The notes under the pieces were generated by a model. That model saw nothing but the letters and a program-made list of their open reading frames with translations, was not told the DNA's origin and did no database searches. Positions 25,617 through 31,356 of a DNA stretch of 64,000 bases are shown here, piece by piece. Made by a program: the position numbers and the translations under genes. How positions within the stretch are numbered: position 1 is the stretch's first letter; every line of letters begins with the position of its first letter. The DNA is from Candidatus Saccharimonadota bacterium (GTDB lineage: Bacteria; Patescibacteriota; Saccharimonadia; Saccharimonadales; JAGQNJ01), in contig DAISWO010000002.1 of NCBI GenBank assembly GCA_036826295.1, forward strand, positions 77,963 to 141,962. The letters are read 5' to 3'.

Positions 25617-26330
25617 TTGTCTGTATATAGCAACACTCAAATTAATCAAGCAATAAATTATGGGCATATTGTCTGCACGCCGTTCAACCCGAAGCACGTA
25701 GCGCATGCCAGCCTAGACGTGACTCTAGGATATTACTATTATCGAACAGAAAGAGCCGGTGACCACACAATCTACAATCCATTTGATGAAGCCGATGTCT
25801 CTAGATATTTTGAAGGCCCACACAAAGCTGTACCTCATAAAAAATGGTGTGATGACAATGGAGTAAAACTTCTCAAAGGAGTGCCCGCTGATCATCCAGT
25901 AATCCCACTAAAACCCGGAGAGAGAATCCTGGCTCATACACACGAATTTTTCGGCATAAAACCACCAGGCGCATATGAACTAAAATCTCGTTCAAGTTGG
26001 GGCCGAAACGGCATAGCAGTTTGTTTTGATGCTGGTTGGGTTGATCCAGGCTATATTAATCGTTTGACATTAGAAATCTTTAATCTCAACCACAAAGAGA
26101 TCGTACTGTTGCCCGTAGGAGAACGTATCGGTCAAGCAGTATTTCATGACACCGGACAAGTTGAAGGAAACTACGGTGAAGGTCGAGAAAACGGCTTTAG
26201 CGGAAAGTACCAAAGTGGCACAGATCTAGATACCCTAATAAAAACCTGGAAACCAGAAATGATGCTACCAAAAGCGTATAAAGACAAACGCTCGTTGCCA
26301 GTAAAAATCAAAGGACTAAAAGGTGACTGA
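25617..26330 (+). CDS. dcd: dCTP deaminase/dUTPase-superfamily protein (TTG start)
   Basis: SLDVTLG.., SRSSWGRNGIAVCFDAGWVDPGYINRLTLEIFNLN, GERIGQAVF motifs of the Dcd family. Confidence 0.78.
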   Translation: MSVYSNTQINQAINYGHIVCTPFNPKHVAHASLDVTLGYYYYRTERAGDHTIYNPFDEADVSRYFEGPHKAVPHKKWCDDNGVKLLKGVPADHPVIPLKPGERILAHTHEFFGIKPPGAYELKSRSSWGRNGIAVCFDAGWVDPGYINRLTLEIFNLNHKEIVLLPVGERIGQAVFHDTGQVEGNYGEGRENGFSGKYQSGTDLDTLIKTWKPEMMLPKAYKDKRSLPVKIKGLKGD

Positions 26331-28665
26331 CATCCCACAAAACTTTGGTGGGGAAGAATCTACTAATTTAGCTAAAGGCATTTTTATCGTTATCGAGGGC
26401 ACAGACGGCTCTGGTAAGAGTACGCAATATCAGCTACTTAAAGAACATTTAGAAAGTATGGGCCACGACATTGTCCCAATACACTTCCCGCGCTACGACC
26501 AACCATCGAGTTATTTTATCAGGCAATATTTAAGCGGAGCATATGGCATGGGCGACGAAATTAATCCGTATTCTGGGTCAATATTCTACGCGCTGGATCG
26601 ATACGAGGCATCTAATGAAATACGCCAAGCACTTAGCGAGGGTAAAATTGTCCTTTGCGATAGATATGTAGGCTCGAATATGGCTCATCAAGGTACGAAG
26701 TTTGATAACCCAGCCGAGCGTAGAGGTTATTTTATTTGGCTGGACAATCTAGAATTTGGAACACTCGGCATCCCTCGTCCAGATATTAATTTTGTACTGA
26801 ATAATCCATACGACGTGATAACGTCTCGGCTAAAAAATAAACAAGAATCAAGCACACATATCAAGAAAAAAGACGTACACGAAGTGGACCCCAATCACAT
26901 CAAACGATCAATTGATGTATATCGAGACATGTGCGAATTATTCCCTAAAGACTTTGTACGCATTGACTGCGCAAGAAATGACGTTGTATTGCCAGCCGAA
27001 GAAGTCCATTCACTACTCTGGGAAAAGATTACTCCAAGATTACCTGTAATCAATCAGCCTGTTCCTGACAACGAAGATCAAGACTACATCACAAAAAACG
27101 AAAACGGCTCGTTCTCTATTACTAACGCCGGAAAAGAATTCCTTAACGATGCTATTACAAATACAGATGATAATGTCTATGCATTCACTGGCGAAAAGCT
27201 AACACCAATAACCGCAGCAGCAGCTATGGCCAGACTGAGCCGTCGAGGCGATGATATGCGCGTAACAATATTAGATGAGTTCGCAAAAAACCTTGGCAAG
27301 GACGAAGGGTTACTTAAACGCGTGATTACTGCGTACGGAGACGACTCTGTCCAACAACTTGTCGGCCAACACTTGGTGGTAGAAGAAGCGTCAAATCTAC
27401 TAACAAAAAAACTTGAGTGGGGAAGATTGGCTTCATATCTAGAACAATCAACACGTTACATTTATTTTGATCAAAAGGATAAAAACGGTCGATACAAATA
27501 TTTTACCCCGCCAGAGCTAGATGAGTTAACAAAACAAGTTTATGAACAAACGATGGATGAACTCTTTGATAATTATTCAAAACTTGCTAGTGATTTGACG
27601 GAATATGTACGAAATAAATCTACGGTTGCCGAGTCAGAACGCGATATCGCTTGGAAGGGCGCAACCCGTGCCCAAGCTTGCGATGCAATTCGTGCAGTAC
27701 TTCCAGTAGCTACAAAATCAACTGTAGGAATTTATGCGTCAGGACAAGCACTTGAAAGCCTAATAATGCATTTACAAGCTGACGAATTAGCAGAAGCAAG
27801 AACAACTGGCGATAAAATCTTAGCTGAATCTCGAAAAGTATTGCCAGCATTTTTAGAGCGCGCCGACAAGCCAGAACGAGGTGGAGCCAACATTGCTTAC
27901 AAAGCTAATACGGCAAGAAAAGTAAAAAAGCTTGCTTTAGATTACCTGCCTAACAATAACGTTGGCTCTAATGATGATGTGGTTCTGACTGATTATTGGC
28001 CAAAGAACGAGTTCGACCTAGTTGCCGACATGTTATACGATCACAGCTCGTTATCGCTTGAGGATATTCGTAGTGAGGTTTCTGACTGGCCATATGAGCG
28101 TAAAAAAGAGGTTTTTGACGCGTATGTGGGCGAAAGACTAAATCGGCGTCATAAACCCGGTAGAGCCCTAGAAAAGGCTCATTACAGCTGGGATCTTGTG
28201 TGTGATTACGGGATTTTCCGCGATTTACAGCGTCATCGTATTGTAGATGATCTAGAGTGGCAACTATTAACACCAAGATATGGTTATGAGATTCCAGAAC
28301 TTGTAGAAAAAGCCGGTTTGAGTGACCTTTTCGAACAATGCTTTGATTTAAGCCTAAAATTGTACAGCGACATGCAACAAGCTGGATATCCCCTTGAGGC
28401 CCAGTACGCAACACTCCTTGGTCACAAAATGCGCTGGAAAGTTACTTATAACGCAAGAGAAGCATTTCATTTACACGAACTGCGTACTGCGCCTCAAGGT
28501 CACCCTGGATACCGAAAGTTAGTTAAGCAAATGCACGACAAATTATGCGAGGTACACCCATCAATTGGCGTAGCCATGAAGTTTGTTAATAAAGATGAAG
28601 ATCCCGAGCTAACCAGACTAGCAGCTGAAAGATATACTCAATTTAAACTTAAAGACCTTCAGTAG
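26323..28665 (+). CDS. fusion protein: N-terminal thymidylate kinase + C-terminal extended ThyX-type (flavin-dependent) thymidylate synthase region
   Basis: Tmk P-loop IVIEGTDGSGKSTQ and DRYVGSNMAHQ; C-terminal ThyX RHR motif FRDLQRHRIVD plus HLHELRTAPQGHPGYR. Confidence 0.72.
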   Translation: MTDIPQNFGGEESTNLAKGIFIVIEGTDGSGKSTQYQLLKEHLESMGHDIVPIHFPRYDQPSSYFIRQYLSGAYGMGDEINPYSGSIFYALDRYEASNEIRQALSEGKIVLCDRYVGSNMAHQGTKFDNPAERRGYFIWLDNLEFGTLGIPRPDINFVLNNPYDVITSRLKNKQESSTHIKKKDVHEVDPNHIKRSIDVYRDMCELFPKDFVRIDCARNDVVLPAEEVHSLLWEKITPRLPVINQPVPDNEDQDYITKNENGSFSITNAGKEFLNDAITNTDDNVYAFTGEKLTPITAAAAMARLSRRGDDMRVTILDEFAKNLGKDEGLLKRVITAYGDDSVQQLVGQHLVVEEASNLLTKKLEWGRLASYLEQSTRYIYFDQKDKNGRYKYFTPPELDELTKQVYEQTMDELFDNYSKLASDLTEYVRNKSTVAESERDIAWKGATRAQACDAIRAVLPVATKSTVGIYASGQALESLIMHLQADELAEARTTGDKILAESRKVLPAFLERADKPERGGANIAYKANTARKVKKLALDYLPNNNVGSNDDVVLTDYWPKNEFDLVADMLYDHSSLSLEDIRSEVSDWPYERKKEVFDAYVGERLNRRHKPGRALEKAHYSWDLVCDYGIFRDLQRHRIVDDLEWQLLTPRYGYEIPELVEKAGLSDLFEQCFDLSLKLYSDMQQAGYPLEAQYATLLGHKMRWKVTYNAREAFHLHELRTAPQGHPGYRKLVKQMHDKLCEVHPSIGVAMKFVNKDEDPELTRLAAERYTQFKLKDLQ

Positions 28666-28978
28666 GGATTTGGTAGTTAACCTGTGAGAGCGTTTGGTCA
28701 TCGCTAAAGAATCTGACAACATCTAATACGAGTTCTCCTACCGCAAGAACACGATCGGGATTATCAATACTACAAGGCGTGATATCAGCCTCGTATTGAA
28801 AAACTTCGTGAGCAATAGCGTGAATAGGATCTTCGCCAACCATAAAAACCCCTACAAGGGGTCTACTCGGTGCCTCGCCATAGGCGATTCTTTTAACATT
28901 CATATAGACATCGAACCCCATTCGTTGTCCTCTGCTTTCTATAGAATCATCGGGCCTAGGTAATCTTATTAGTGACAT
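28649..28978 (-). CDS. hypothetical protein (109 aa)
   Basis: ORF only; convergent overlap with the tmk-thyX stop. Confidence 0.5.
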   Translation of the reverse strand: MSLIRLPRPDDSIESRGQRMGFDVYMNVKRIAYGEAPSRPLVGVFMVGEDPIHAIAHEVFQYEADITPCSIDNPDRVLAVGELVLDVVRFFSDDQTLSQVNYQIPTEGL

Positions 28979-29169
28979 AATATCCTCATTAAAAAGGCCT
29001 CCGTTTTTGTGGAGGCCAGTCTTTCGTTCTTTATTGCTTTATCGCAATCGGCCTCCACGCATATCGCCACAAATGATCACTCGATTTGTGAGCATTGTTT
29101 TATGGCTATATTTAACCGGACGTATTAATTTATTCATACCGCAATTAAAATTACTCCTATAAAAAGGGG

Positions 29170-29197
29170 TTGTCAAGATTATTTTTTATGATAAATT
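29170..29197 (+). promoter_or_regulatory. promoter of Leu leader (TTGTCA, 16 nt spacer, TGaTAAATT)
   Basis: -10 ends about 9 nt before ATG 29207, implying a leaderless or near-leaderless leader peptide. Confidence 0.5.
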
Positions 29198-29206
29198 ATA
29201 TATCTA

Positions 29207-29284
29207 ATGACTACAAAATCGTTGAAGCAACAAAACCTGCTACTCAGCCTACAAGGGTTGTGCTTCAACATGGTTGAAGCCTAA
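29207..29284 (+). CDS. Leu-rich leader peptide MTTKSLKQQNLLLSLQGLCFNMVEA (25 aa)
   Basis: Hand translation; codons 11-15 are CTG CTA CTC AGC CTA; overlaps attenuator segments 1-3. Confidence 0.7.
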   Translation: MTTKSLKQQNLLLSLQGLCFNMVEA

Positions 29285-29342
29285 GCGAATAACTCGCTTC
29301 TAGCACAACCGACATCAAACGGCTTCAACGAAGCCGTTTTTT
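29221..29342 (+). promoter_or_regulatory. four-segment transcription attenuator upstream of the leuA-like gene
   Basis: Seg1 GTTGAAGCA 29221-29229. Seg2 TGCTTCAAC 29261-29269. Seg3 GTTGAAGCC 29273-29281. Seg4 GGCTTCAAC 29321-29329, inside terminator AAACGGCTTC-aac-GAAGCCGTTT+TTT 29317-29342. Confidence 0.8.
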
Positions 29343-29360
29343 AAATAATAAGGAGCTAAA

Positions 29361-30644
29361 ATGAGTTTTGAACAAGTAGATGTACATATTTTTGACACAA
29401 CTTTACGTGATGGGGCCCAATCGTTACCTAGAGACCATCAGTTTCCTGTAGGTTCGAGGACAGAAATTGCTGATAAGATAGCCGGCTTAGGCGTTGGTGA
29501 AATCGAAGCTGGGTTTCCCGTCACACCAGGCGATGCGACTGAAGTAGAAGAGGTTGCTAGAACAATTGGCAATAAAGCCTATTCTGTCTCTCGATGGGAA
29601 CAAGCAGAGCTATCGGGAGAAGTTACGCGACCACCTGTTATTGCGGGCCTATCTCGTACAACTCAAGGTGATATCGAAGCAACATGGGAGGCAATCCAAT
29701 ACGCATCTCGCCCACGAATACATACTTTTGTCTCGACAGATCCAGAGCATATGGCCGCAAAGTTTCCAGGAAAGTCTCAGACCCAAGTACTAAATATGGG
29801 AAGAGATGCTATCCGTATGGCACGGGATTTTTCAGATGAGCATACCGGAGCTTCAGTAGAATTTTCCGCGGAAGCTGCTAGTACAACTGATACCGAATAT
29901 TTAGAAAGAGTAATTAGGACAGCGGTGTCAGAAGGAGCTGATATAATCAATCTTCCAGATACCGTAGGACAAAGAAATCCATTTTGGATGAAAGATTTTT
30001 ACTCTAAAGCTATCGAGTGGATTCGTTCAGAGAATCCTGACGTAGTAATCTCCGCGCACAACCATAACGATTTAGGGATGGCTGCCGCGAATAGCTATGC
30101 TTTATTGTTAGCCGCCGCAGATGCTGCACAAAAATCACAGTCCAGAGTCAATATACAAATCGAAGGAACAATTTGTGGCTTAGGCGAACGCGCAGGTAAT
30201 GCAGACATCTTCACTGTGATGGGAGAGATCTATAAGTTTGTTGGTGACTTGGCAGTACCGGTTACATGGGGCTTTAATCCAGAAAAGTCAGTCCAAATAG
30301 CAAATGATGTAATGGGTTACGCAGGATTAAGTGTTGATCGACAGAATCCTATTGTTGGCCGAGACACAATGGTACATCGATCCGGAATCCACAGCGATGG
30401 TGTAATTAAGGGTGGTCATCAAATATACACTCCACATGACCCTACTTTCTGGGGCCACAGAGAACAAGCCGTCCACGAAGAAGGACGATATCAAGGCAAA
30501 GCAGGTCGTGCCGCCGCGAGAAAATCAATTTCACAAATTGGCGCATCCGACTTAAGGGAAGTAATAGATGGAACCGTGAACCCAGACGAACACGATTACG
30601 ACGGATTCGAAAATGAACTAAGAGCCGCTGGCGTCACTATTTGA
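29361..30644 (+). CDS. leuA: 2-isopropylmalate synthase/homocitrate synthase-family (HMGL-like) enzyme, short form
   Basis: FDTTLRDGAQS, EAGFP, HNHNDLGMAAANS, HRSGIHSDG motifs; 427 aa, apparently lacking the usual LeuA C-terminal regulatory domain. Confidence 0.8.
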   Translation: MSFEQVDVHIFDTTLRDGAQSLPRDHQFPVGSRTEIADKIAGLGVGEIEAGFPVTPGDATEVEEVARTIGNKAYSVSRWEQAELSGEVTRPPVIAGLSRTTQGDIEATWEAIQYASRPRIHTFVSTDPEHMAAKFPGKSQTQVLNMGRDAIRMARDFSDEHTGASVEFSAEAASTTDTEYLERVIRTAVSEGADIINLPDTVGQRNPFWMKDFYSKAIEWIRSENPDVVISAHNHNDLGMAAANSYALLLAAADAAQKSQSRVNIQIEGTICGLGERAGNADIFTVMGEIYKFVGDLAVPVTWGFNPEKSVQIANDVMGYAGLSVDRQNPIVGRDTMVHRSGIHSDGVIKGGHQIYTPHDPTFWGHREQAVHEEGRYQGKAGRAAARKSISQIGASDLREVIDGTVNPDEHDYDGFENELRAAGVTI

Positions 30645-30845: not shown

Positions 30846-31163
30846 GTGTTAGCCGTTCGAGGGGTTAGTTTTGAAGAGCGAGAACGCATAGCCCAAGAGT
30901 TGGCCCAATTTATGATAGGTGGTTTTAGCGCAGAGCAGCTCATTATAGCGACTTCAGCCATCGATCAACTCTATTCCAGAGCATCCGCAGGTAAAAATTA
31001 CACGCATTCTGAAGCAGATGTTTTTGCTAGAGCCGCAATATTTGCAGTGCAAACTCGAGGTATACCCGAACAAGGCTTAATAGTCGATAAGATCAAACGA
31101 AATCGTAATAGATCGCTAGGCAAACCAGGCAAAGCCGAAGTTCAAGAGTTGCAAAACATTTGA
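30846..31163 (+). CDS. hypothetical protein (105 aa from GTG; frame also open from ATT 30795, 6 nt after GAAGGAG)
   Basis: ORF; start codon uncertain. Confidence 0.4.
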   Translation: MLAVRGVSFEERERIAQELAQFMIGGFSAEQLIIATSAIDQLYSRASAGKNYTHSEADVFARAAIFAVQTRGIPEQGLIVDKIKRNRNRSLGKPGKAEVQELQNI

Positions 31164-31310
31164 CACCGACGCTTTACTCTGTTAAGATTGCATAGTTAAT
31201 TACCAAAGACAGCGATGGTCGCACGCGACTTAATCATATCGCCGAGGCAAAAACATCAACTTTTTGTATCGTACGTTTTTAAAAGTCTTTGGTAACCCAA
31301 AGGCTTTTTT
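31160..31310 (+). promoter_or_regulatory. rplJ promoter and L10-leader-like attenuator
   Basis: TTGACA 31160-31165, 17 nt spacer, TAAGAT 31183-31188. Long-range helix TTACCAAAGAC 31200-31210 / GTCTTTGGTAA 31285-31295 competes with terminator 31284-31305 + T-run. Confidence 0.6.
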
Positions 31311-31356
31311 AGTCTTCGTACATTGAAATGAATAAAATAATCAAAGAAAGGAAGAT

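Follow-up and report, generated by a model that had tools for sequence, protein, structure and literature searches.

Leader ORF, promoter and presumed regulated gene

We analyzed a stretch of 64,000 nucleotides (nt) from Candidatus Saccharimonadota bacterium (assembly GCA_036826295.1, contig DAISWO010000002.1, positions 77,963 to 141,962), here called the window. Its region 29170-29360 precedes a gene coding for a LeuA/HMGL-like protein, and an original prediction, made from the letters alone, had described this region as a leucine leader-peptide attenuator. Our analysis of the sequence and its relatives makes it highly probable that the region is a translation-dependent, Leu-responsive transcription attenuator. 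The parts of this element lie on the plus strand.

The gene presumed to be regulated (29361-30644) is preceded by a Shine-Dalgarno (SD) sequence, AAGGAG, at 29350-29355 and codes for a protein of 427 amino acids (aa). The best matches of this protein were 2-isopropylmalate synthases (IPMS), and the nearest solved structures were IPMS catalytic domains. Every NCBIfam equivalog cut-off was missed (best score 246 bits, cut-off 532). Pfam identified only HMGL-like and a weak HCS_D2 in this protein, with no C-terminal LeuA_dimer regulatory domain. Judged by the equivalog cut-offs and by LeuA_dimer, the product would not qualify as 2-isopropylmalate synthase (LeuA), and we refer to it as LeuA-like. 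Its homologues came nearly all from Candidatus Saccharibacteria, and the nearest genome record (93% identity) was an uncultured Saccharibacteria metagenome-assembled genome. The gene is monocistronic and is flanked by a tmk-thyX fusion gene on one side and by the rplJ-rplL operon on the other.

Upstream of this gene we found the leader open reading frame (ORF) that had been predicted at 29207-29284. It has 25 codons, from ATG at 29207 to TAA at 29282-29284, and codes for the peptide MTTKSLKQQNLLLSLQGLCFNMVEA. As read from the window sequence, 6 of the 25 codons specify Leu, and the regulatory run CTG CTA CTC AGC CTA (L11 L12 L13 S14 L15) occupies 29237-29251, both in agreement with the prediction. 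Among the Leu codons of the window, CTG and CTC are the two least frequent. Downstream of the run, Leu18 is encoded by TTG at 29258-29260.

The ORF follows a sigma-70-type promoter (29170-29197), which consists of the -35 box TTGTCA at 29170-29175, a 16-nt spacer and the extended -10 box TG-a-TAAATT at 29189-29197. This promoter is unchanged in close relatives. The gap between the -10 box and the ATG is 9 nt, or 7 nt if the alternative -10 box AATTAT is taken, and no SD was found ahead of the leader ATG in the window sequence. Since the promoter ends at 29197 and no SD precedes the ATG, the transcript should start 0-3 nt 5' of the leader ATG. The position of the promoter fits a leaderless mRNA, or one with a leader of at most 3 nt, much as the original prediction had proposed.

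We examined this geometry in 96 non-redundant leaders of the family described below, whose promoters were located independently of the ORF. An in-frame start codon first appeared 6-10 nt past the -10 hexamer in 79 of these leaders (mode 7 nt), and the first ATG of any frame belonged to the leader frame in 82. We counted stop codons between the predicted transcript start and the codon run, a region constrained by no search pattern. There was 1 in the leader frame, which was open in 95/96 leaders, while there were 177 and 47 in the other two frames. To judge from these sequences, the leader ORF is kept as a coding sequence and is presumably translated.

Alternative helices of the leader RNA

Four segments with pairings of 8-9 base pairs (bp) had been predicted in the leader, and we found all of them where they had been placed. 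They share a common 8-9 nt core in alternating orientation. Segment 1 (TCGTTGAAGCA, 29219-29229, with its 9-nt core at 29221-29229) spans the codons S-L-K-Q. Segment 2 (TGCTTCAAC) lies at 29261-29269, segment 3 (GTTGAAGCC) at 29273-29281, next to the stop codon TAA at 29282-29284, and segment 4 (GGCTTCAAC) at 29321-29329. The pairings 1:2, 2:3 and 3:4 are perfect over 9, 8 and 9 bp, respectively. Segments 2 and 3 are the 5' and 3' arms of a helix that we call P2. Segment 3 is also the 5' strand of the putative antiterminator, whose 3' strand is segment 4.

Three further elements were absent from the original prediction. The first is a complementarity of 10 bp between segments 1 and 4 (TCGTTGAAGC:GCTTCAACGA). 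The second is helix P1 (9 bp), formed by a 5' arm at 29256-29264 (GGTTGTGCT), within codons G17-L18-C19, and a 3' arm at 29302-29310 (AGCACAACC). The third is the hairpin P3, AGCGA-ataac-TCGCT, at 29284-29298. The 5' arms of P1 and P2 sit inside leader codons 17-21, and the P1 5' arm is the strand predicted to be sensitive to the ribosome.

The intrinsic terminator, AAACGGCTTC-aac-GAAGCCGTTT with a T-run, occupies 29317-29342, and segment 4 forms its 5' arm and loop. Its hairpin (29317-29339) folded with 10 bp and -11.2 kcal/mol, and six T are present at 29337-29342. A consensus terminator scan did not list this hairpin, because the scan extends the stem into the T-run; the hairpin was confirmed by folding. 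The hairpin and its T's stood as predicted, but not their distance of 18 nt to the SD, since it is the start codon at 29361 that the T-run precedes by 18 nt.

The minimum free energy of the 143-nt leader was -43.6 kcal/mol, compared with -24.6 +/- 3.75 kcal/mol for dinucleotide shuffles (z = -5.1), and 0/200 shuffles folded as stably as the leader. A search of the window with covariance model R1 gave no scaffold copy beyond this one.

Conservation in relatives and covariation

We retrieved 25 GTDB Saccharibacteria loci via the protein alone, at 55-65% identity except for one close relative. The same element was present at all 24 loci that had both the LeuA-like gene and upstream DNA (protein identity 55-93%). 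The order of parts was shared. A sigma-70 promoter is followed by a start codon approximately 7 nt past the -10 box, about nine variable codons and the run L-L-L-(S/G)-L. Then come x-(G/R)-L-C-F-x-x-(V/I/G)-E-A, a stop codon 0-3 codons further on in all but locus L022, a variable hairpin, GCACAGCCC and the terminator.

In close relatives (85-93% protein identity) the whole leader was kept. Their runs (CTG CTA CTC, CTA CTG CTA and TTA CTC CTC) showed synonymous differences only, and their N-terminal leader codons differed non-synonymously. Among 26 LeuA-linked leaders, the four Leu positions of the run were occupied by Leu in 22, 24, 26 and 24, respectively; within the run codons, position 2 was nearly invariant and position 3 varied. 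The C-terminal half of the peptide was altered where the RNA covaries, as in GLRFSRAKVSR (locus L017) and GLCLAYAKA (locus L031). The 'GLCF..VEA' motif therefore reflects constraint at the level of the RNA and not of the peptide.

For covariation we used a MAFFT alignment of the protein-anchored leaders, which is unbiased by any RNA pattern because of this anchoring. P1 pairing was kept in relatives at 98-99%, and its UA<->CG changes were compensatory. P2 was 86-89% paired, and both-sided changes were observed in 3/6 of its pairs and in 5/5 pairs of P3. None of 500 shuffles reached the covariation score of P1, P2 and P3 (slid controls 34-44% paired), and RNAalifold independently recovered P1 and the terminator. 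The antiterminator pairing of segments 3 and 4 was 90-91% paired with both-sided changes in 7/10 pairs, for example GGTGAAGC:GCTTCACC, ATTGAAGCC:GGCTTCAAT and GCCAAAGTTT:AAACTTTGGC. Its covariation was matched by 0-1/500 shuffles (slid controls 24-54% paired). The terminator helix was 88% paired, and 4/6 of its pairs covaried in a model-based alignment. This covariation supports a three-way junction of P1, P2 and P3, a terminator and a mutually exclusive antiterminator formed by segments 3 and 4. Conservation in relatives carrying the gene had been named as a check on the original prediction, and the check came out in its favor, as the leader was kept at 24/24 such loci and the covarying pairing of segments 3 and 4 was 91% paired.

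The part assigned to segment 1 fared less well. Its complementarity to segment 2 is real in the window, but it was kept in only approximately 60% of the family. N-terminal complementarity of this type was enriched in 59% of 120 leaders (p<=0.05 compared with shuffles) and is not universal. Segment 1 corresponds to the frequent codons L/V-K-Q (TTGAAGCA or GTGAAGCA).

A further candidate helix, P0, pairs codons S14-L15 with the start of P1. It was 93.5% paired with one-sided changes only; we regard it as unproven and did not include it.

Leaders with exchanged codon runs in metagenomes

We searched metagenome contigs with the structural core only (GGCTGTGCTT, N9, TGAAGC, a gap of 12-40 nt, CAGYC) and obtained at least 120 matches. 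Among the matches listed, approximately 108 were leaders of the same design, and approximately 12 were chance matches inside long ORFs, which we excluded. The element is widespread in Saccharibacteria. The original prediction had called it unexpected in a reduced genome resembling genomes from the candidate phyla radiation (CPR), but it is no oddity of this genome. Among the matches listed, rplJ lay 0.5-2.2 kb downstream at approximately 30 loci, which is the genomic slot of the element in the window, and one metagenome contig was annotated as Candidatus Saccharibacteria.

Most of the listed leaders were not followed by a LeuA-like gene. In most complete loci an SD and a start codon lay approximately 10-50 nt past the terminator on the same strand, and downstream genes were assigned from SD-anchored, clustered ORFs. 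These genes included the LeuA family (some members full-length with the regulatory domain), leuS, ilvB, ilvA, a divergent threonine-dehydratase-like gene, ridA and an M20 ArgE/DapE-type deacylase. IlvB, IlvA, LeuS and RidA exceeded their NCBIfam cut-offs.

The codon run differed with the downstream gene. In 39 leaders of LeuA-family genes and leuS, the runs contained 74% L, 3% I and 0% V. Leaders of threonine-dehydratase-like genes had Ile runs, such as IIIPGI and IIIIPDI. IlvB leaders had mixed I/L/V runs, except for three Leu-only leaders of RidA+IlvB, and mixed I/L/V runs were also found in RidA+IlvA leaders and in all M20 deacylase leaders. Run composition was associated with gene class (p = 4e-5 and p = 1e-7, Fisher tests that ignore phylogeny). 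The contrast was also observed within single genomes (L014 and L021), where the LeuA-like gene follows a Leu-type leader, and a small ORF and ilvB follow a leader with V-I-I-I-L. The second scaffold copy lies directly after the LeuA-like gene (L014:1548-1661, L021:3742-3854, L022:3735-3839) and carries a promoter of its own and a run of the Ile/Val type (MVYNRVKQLVIIILGRQGLCFTMVEASEQ). A constant scaffold in which codon identity tracks the pathway fits a sensor that is read by the ribosome, rather than a ligand-binding RNA or a functional peptide.

On balance, we favor the view that Saccharibacteria share a phylum-wide modular cassette, in which a leaderless mini-ORF with a 3' half fixed by the junction carries an exchangeable 5-codon run (Leu, Ile or Ile/Val) that would tie the expression of different genes to the supply of branched-chain amino acids. 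We lean to a similar degree towards counting biosynthetic remnants (LeuA-like, IlvB, IlvA and RidA), leuS, M20/ArgE-type deacylases and many small uncharacterized ORFs beside the rplJ operon as its targets. If the cassette is real, it would provide the first evidence that CPR bacteria regulate genes in a general way by ribosome-coupled attenuation and leaderless translation, and it would define a starvation regulon able to assign roles to unknown genes.

The M20 ArgE/DapE deacylase (approximately 385 aa, below all equivalog cut-offs) was found at L036, L048, L055, L073, L076, L085, L100, L103 and L106. As it is a frequent target of mixed I/L/V leaders, its position suggests a role in freeing branched-chain amino acids from peptides or acyl-amino acids. 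At most of the loci L036-L155 (e.g. L037, L053, L054, L096, L112) the terminator and an SD were followed by a poorly conserved ORF of 45-100 aa before the first recognizable gene. Several of these small ORFs end in ...(F/W)xxNLPA. The window has an ORF of 84-105 aa at 30846-31163 in the corresponding position, after the LeuA-like gene. At L090 and L095 the scaffold with a Leu run preceded leuS by 240-340 nt, and a small ORF lay in between; this arrangement parallels the leaderless LeuL2-leuS attenuator of Streptomyces.

Proposed mechanism and folding with a ribosome

We are confident that the element senses the supply of charged tRNA-Leu and controls the monocistronic LeuA-like gene, and we infer the direction, in which starvation would turn the gene on. 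The specific scheme, with P1 and P2 as protector, segments 3 and 4 as antiterminator, and segment 4 with the 3' arm as terminator, is likely, though we hold it with less confidence. It follows the classical trp/leu logic that had been proposed.

The transcript would begin within 3 nt of the leader ATG, so that a 70S ribosome could load at the 5' end and trail RNA polymerase closely. In the predicted default fold, P1 (29256-64:29302-10) encloses P2 (segments 2 and 3) and P3 in a three-way junction. With segment 3 locked in this junction, segment 4 would pair with the 3' arm of the terminator, and transcription would stop at the T-run (approximately 29340). A ribosome that reaches the stop codon (29282-84) would cover segment 3 and likewise lead to termination. 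When charged tRNA-Leu is scarce, the ribosome would linger on the Leu codons. If its leading edge then lies over the P1 5' arm or segment 2 (A site from approximately L15 to F20), P1 and P2 would be blocked. Segments 3 and 4 would be left to form the antiterminator in place of the terminator, and the gene would be transcribed. Termination at the T-run and the decisive positions of the ribosome are predictions of this model.

We modeled the ribosome by folding only the RNA 3' of it, in transcripts of 31 leaders cut before the terminator 3' arm; these folds are thermodynamic and not kinetic. Masking within the whole leader was set aside, since in such folds segment 1 pairs with segment 2 across the bound ribosome, a contact that is implausible on steric grounds. 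As long as the P1 5' arm was free, P1 formed and the antiterminator (probability >0.5) was obtained in 4/31 leaders. When the leading edge covered the P1 arm, this number rose to 17-21/31, and it was 26-29/31 when the edge also covered the first bases of segment 2. In the direct comparison of a free with a masked P1 arm, the count under the mask was 27/31. With the edge past segment 3, as for a ribosome at the stop codon, the antiterminator formed in 0/31 leaders. This matches the prediction that a ribosome at the stop codon covers segment 3 and allows the terminator to form.

The leading edge of a bacterial ribosome lies 11-13 nt past the first A-site base, as known from footprints and toeprints, and stall positions were calculated on this assumption. 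Productive stalls extended from approximately S14/L15 to F20 in the family, and from L15 (borderline) to F20 in the window, where the antiterminator requires a leading edge at or past 29262. Only two Leu stalls reach the ribosome-sensitive strand, chiefly the P1 5' arm, namely those at L15 (29249-29251) and Leu18 (29258-29260). In these folds, the claim that a stall at the Leu run masks segment 2 and frees segment 3 for pairing with segment 4 agreed with masks corresponding to approximately L15-F20. It did not agree with masks for the first Leu codons, and the strand predicted to be masked is chiefly the P1 5' arm.

Points against the attenuator and other explanations

Several observations weigh against a Leu-responsive attenuator of this kind. 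With the standard footprint, a ribosome stalled at one of the first two or three Leu codons of the run falls short of P1 and P2, and these codons may do no more than slow it. Leu18 (CTG/TTG) does not vary, not even in Ile-type leaders, and this blurs specificity. At equilibrium the full-length leader always prefers the terminator, so that the switch must be kinetic. In a truncated transcript free of ribosomes, pairing of segments 1:2 and 3:4 is favored, and so an untranslated leader is predicted to read through. Once segment 1 is uncovered, its pairing with segment 4 could block the terminator. The leader of L022 (2377-2485) keeps the remaining scaffold, but its stop codon TAA comes right behind the Leu run and ahead of the P1 5' arm (MTFVSDHTANLLLSL). 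Such a position is at odds with a ribosome that would cover segment 3 on reaching the stop codon. No leuBCD was seen near the LeuA-like gene, either in the window or in two longer contigs. To these points we add the neglect of phylogeny in the Fisher tests.

Some of them would suit an element that depends on translation but is not specific for Leu, that is, a general reporter of translation or coupling, a nascent-peptide arrest, or a switch of opposite direction that is on when Leu is plentiful. Footprint geometry leaves only L15 and L18 in range, Leu18 is shared by all classes, the untranslated RNA is predicted to read through, and the role of a LeuA-like enzyme is unclear in an organism described, in the abstract of PMC7427843, as having 'limited biosynthetic capabilities'. 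We nevertheless consider such an element improbable. The runs are class-specific (Leu-only for LeuA/LeuS, Ile-only for threonine dehydratase), also within one genome, and the targets are those induced on starvation by known attenuators and T-boxes.

Still less probable is a riboswitch, or a protein-binding or tRNA-binding leader, that switches without translation and contains the ORF only incidentally. It would account for the constraint at RNA level in the 3' two-thirds of the leader, where P1, P2, P3 and the terminator covary, and for a three-way junction, which is a common aptamer shape; equilibrium folding alone also does not produce the switch. It would not account for a frame open in 95/96 leaders next to stop-rich other frames, for a start codon at a fixed distance from the -10 box, or for a Leu run that drifts synonymously with codon periodicity. 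The only systematic difference between classes lies in the codon run, by amino acid (Leu, Ile, Ile/Val) and not by structure, and no Rfam match to the element, T-box included, was obtained in the window or in 9 related loci.

We consider it equally implausible that the ORF encodes a small hydrophobic peptide with a function of its own, or that the unit is a separate small-RNA or small-protein gene carrying its own terminator, and so no sensor for the downstream gene. In favor of this, all runs are hydrophobic (L/I/V/F/M), promoter and terminator belong to the unit itself, and at many metagenome loci a small non-conserved ORF rather than an amino-acid gene comes next. Against it, the C-terminal half of the peptide changes freely while RNA pairing is kept (L017, L031), covariation between antiterminator and terminator has no role in such a unit, an SD and start codon follow approximately 10-50 nt past the terminator on the same strand at most complete loci, and run composition tracks the function of the downstream gene.

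Comparison with known systems

We searched 28600-29700 against Rfam 15 and found no relevant match at E<=10, including to Leu_leader RF00512. At gathering scores, the window and 9 related loci gave only chance matches, tRNAs and the L10 leader, and no T-box. Full-text literature searches for Saccharibacteria, Patescibacteria and CPR yielded no report on leader peptides or attenuation. The mechanism belongs to a known class, but neither the RNA family nor its occurrence in a phylum of the CPR appears to have been described.

Among known systems, the actinobacterial leaderless leuA and leuS leaders come closest. Leaderless leader peptides were described in S. lividans, with LeuL1 (MRFGLLLLSCRGEGL) before leuA, LeuL2 (MRAVRLLLSEPR) before leuS and IlvL before ilvBHC (PMC8079986); leuA, leuS and ilvB are listed there under leaderless leader peptides in Streptomyces. 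In C. diphtheriae, leu and ilvB leaders were reported (PMC5784534). These leaders resemble the Saccharibacteria element in a short ORF, predicted to be leaderless in Saccharibacteria as well, with a run of the type L-L-L(-L)-S (MRAVRLLLSEPR, MRFGLLLLSCRGEGL, MNRANLLLLRRGGSQA) and in the target set leuA, leuS and ilvB, and some have a hairpin with a U-tract terminator. However, the actinobacterial peptides have 12-16 aa and end soon after the run, whereas the Saccharibacteria ORF runs on through the anti-antiterminator strands. LeuL1 reportedly lacks a typical terminator, and the Saccharibacteria element has one. No shared RNA scaffold has been reported for the actinobacterial leaders, while in Saccharibacteria one scaffold of P1, P2, P3 and the terminator serves the Leu, Ile and Ile/Val classes alike. 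It is not evident that the two groups are homologous.

The chain of alternative segments in the Salmonella his leader has more than four members, as it does here. With the enterobacterial leu leader (leuL, RF00512) and the trp/leu/his attenuators, the element shares a short ORF with consecutive Leu codons and mutually exclusive protector, antiterminator and terminator. It also shares with the leu leader a stop codon placed so that a finished ribosome would favor the terminator. It differs from that leader in several respects. In enterobacteria the leader carries an SD and does not start leaderless, while the Saccharibacteria leader has no SD. The two are not homologous, there is no match in sequence or structure (no Rfam match at E<=10), and the protector is a three-way junction, unlike that of the enterobacterial leader. 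Finally, the enterobacterial leader controls a full leuABCD operon, and the element described here an orphan LeuA-like gene.

T-boxes are also modular leaders before aminoacyl-tRNA synthetase and amino-acid genes, with a swappable codon element on a constant terminator/antiterminator scaffold. They bind uncharged tRNA directly, without translation, whereas the codon element of the Saccharibacteria leaders is presumably a translated run. No T-box or specifier-loop match was found in the Rfam searches of 28600-29700 and of 9 related loci.

Saccharibacteria, which live as episymbionts and are ultra-small, have minimal biosynthesis, and their gene regulation is poorly understood. A conserved leader-peptide attenuator would imply that they use canonical intrinsic termination, tight coupling of transcription and translation, and leaderless initiation, and that they monitor charged tRNA-Leu, tRNA-Ile and tRNA-Val. 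It would also tie the orphan LeuA-like enzyme, the M20 deacylases and many small ORFs to branched-chain amino-acid limitation, so that their functions become testable. The analysis adds an RNA family absent from Rfam, with approximately 130 members recognized. We recommend annotating the 25-codon ORF, like its relatives, as a leader peptide.

Neighboring genes and a possible divergent leader

Upstream of the element, the tmk-thyX fusion gene (26323-28665 of the window) is an ORF of 780 aa with an N-terminal thymidylate kinase fused to ThyX (Thy1 domains). A dCTP-deaminase-like gene comes before it, and this arrangement is kept in L001 and L034. Downstream, a ribosomal protein L10 leader (RF00557, 63 bits) was detected at 31185-31320, upstream of rplJ-rplL. 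The L10 leader is likewise found downstream of the attenuator in related loci.

The protein of a divergent minus-strand gene (28649-28978, 109 aa) matched neither Pfam nor NCBIfam. This gene seems to be preceded by a leader-peptide attenuator of its own at 28979-29175 of the window, with a different RNA scaffold. Its -35 box, TTGACA (29175-29170, minus strand), overlaps the plus-strand -35 box. A small ORF on the minus strand (MNKLIRPVKYSHKTMLTNRVIICGDMRGGRLR) runs from ATG at 29136 to TAA at 29039. It is accompanied by a putative antiterminator, GTGGAGGCC (29058-29050) paired with GGCCTCCAC, and by a putative terminator, GGCCTCC-acaaaaac-GGAGGCC with T5 (29017-28996), directly before an SD and the ATG at 28978. 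L001 retains the small ORF. At L034, the gene in the syntenic position comes with a leaderless leader (MRAFNQIIIAKHLCRTYGFVFVMA) that contains a III run, an antiterminator and a terminator.

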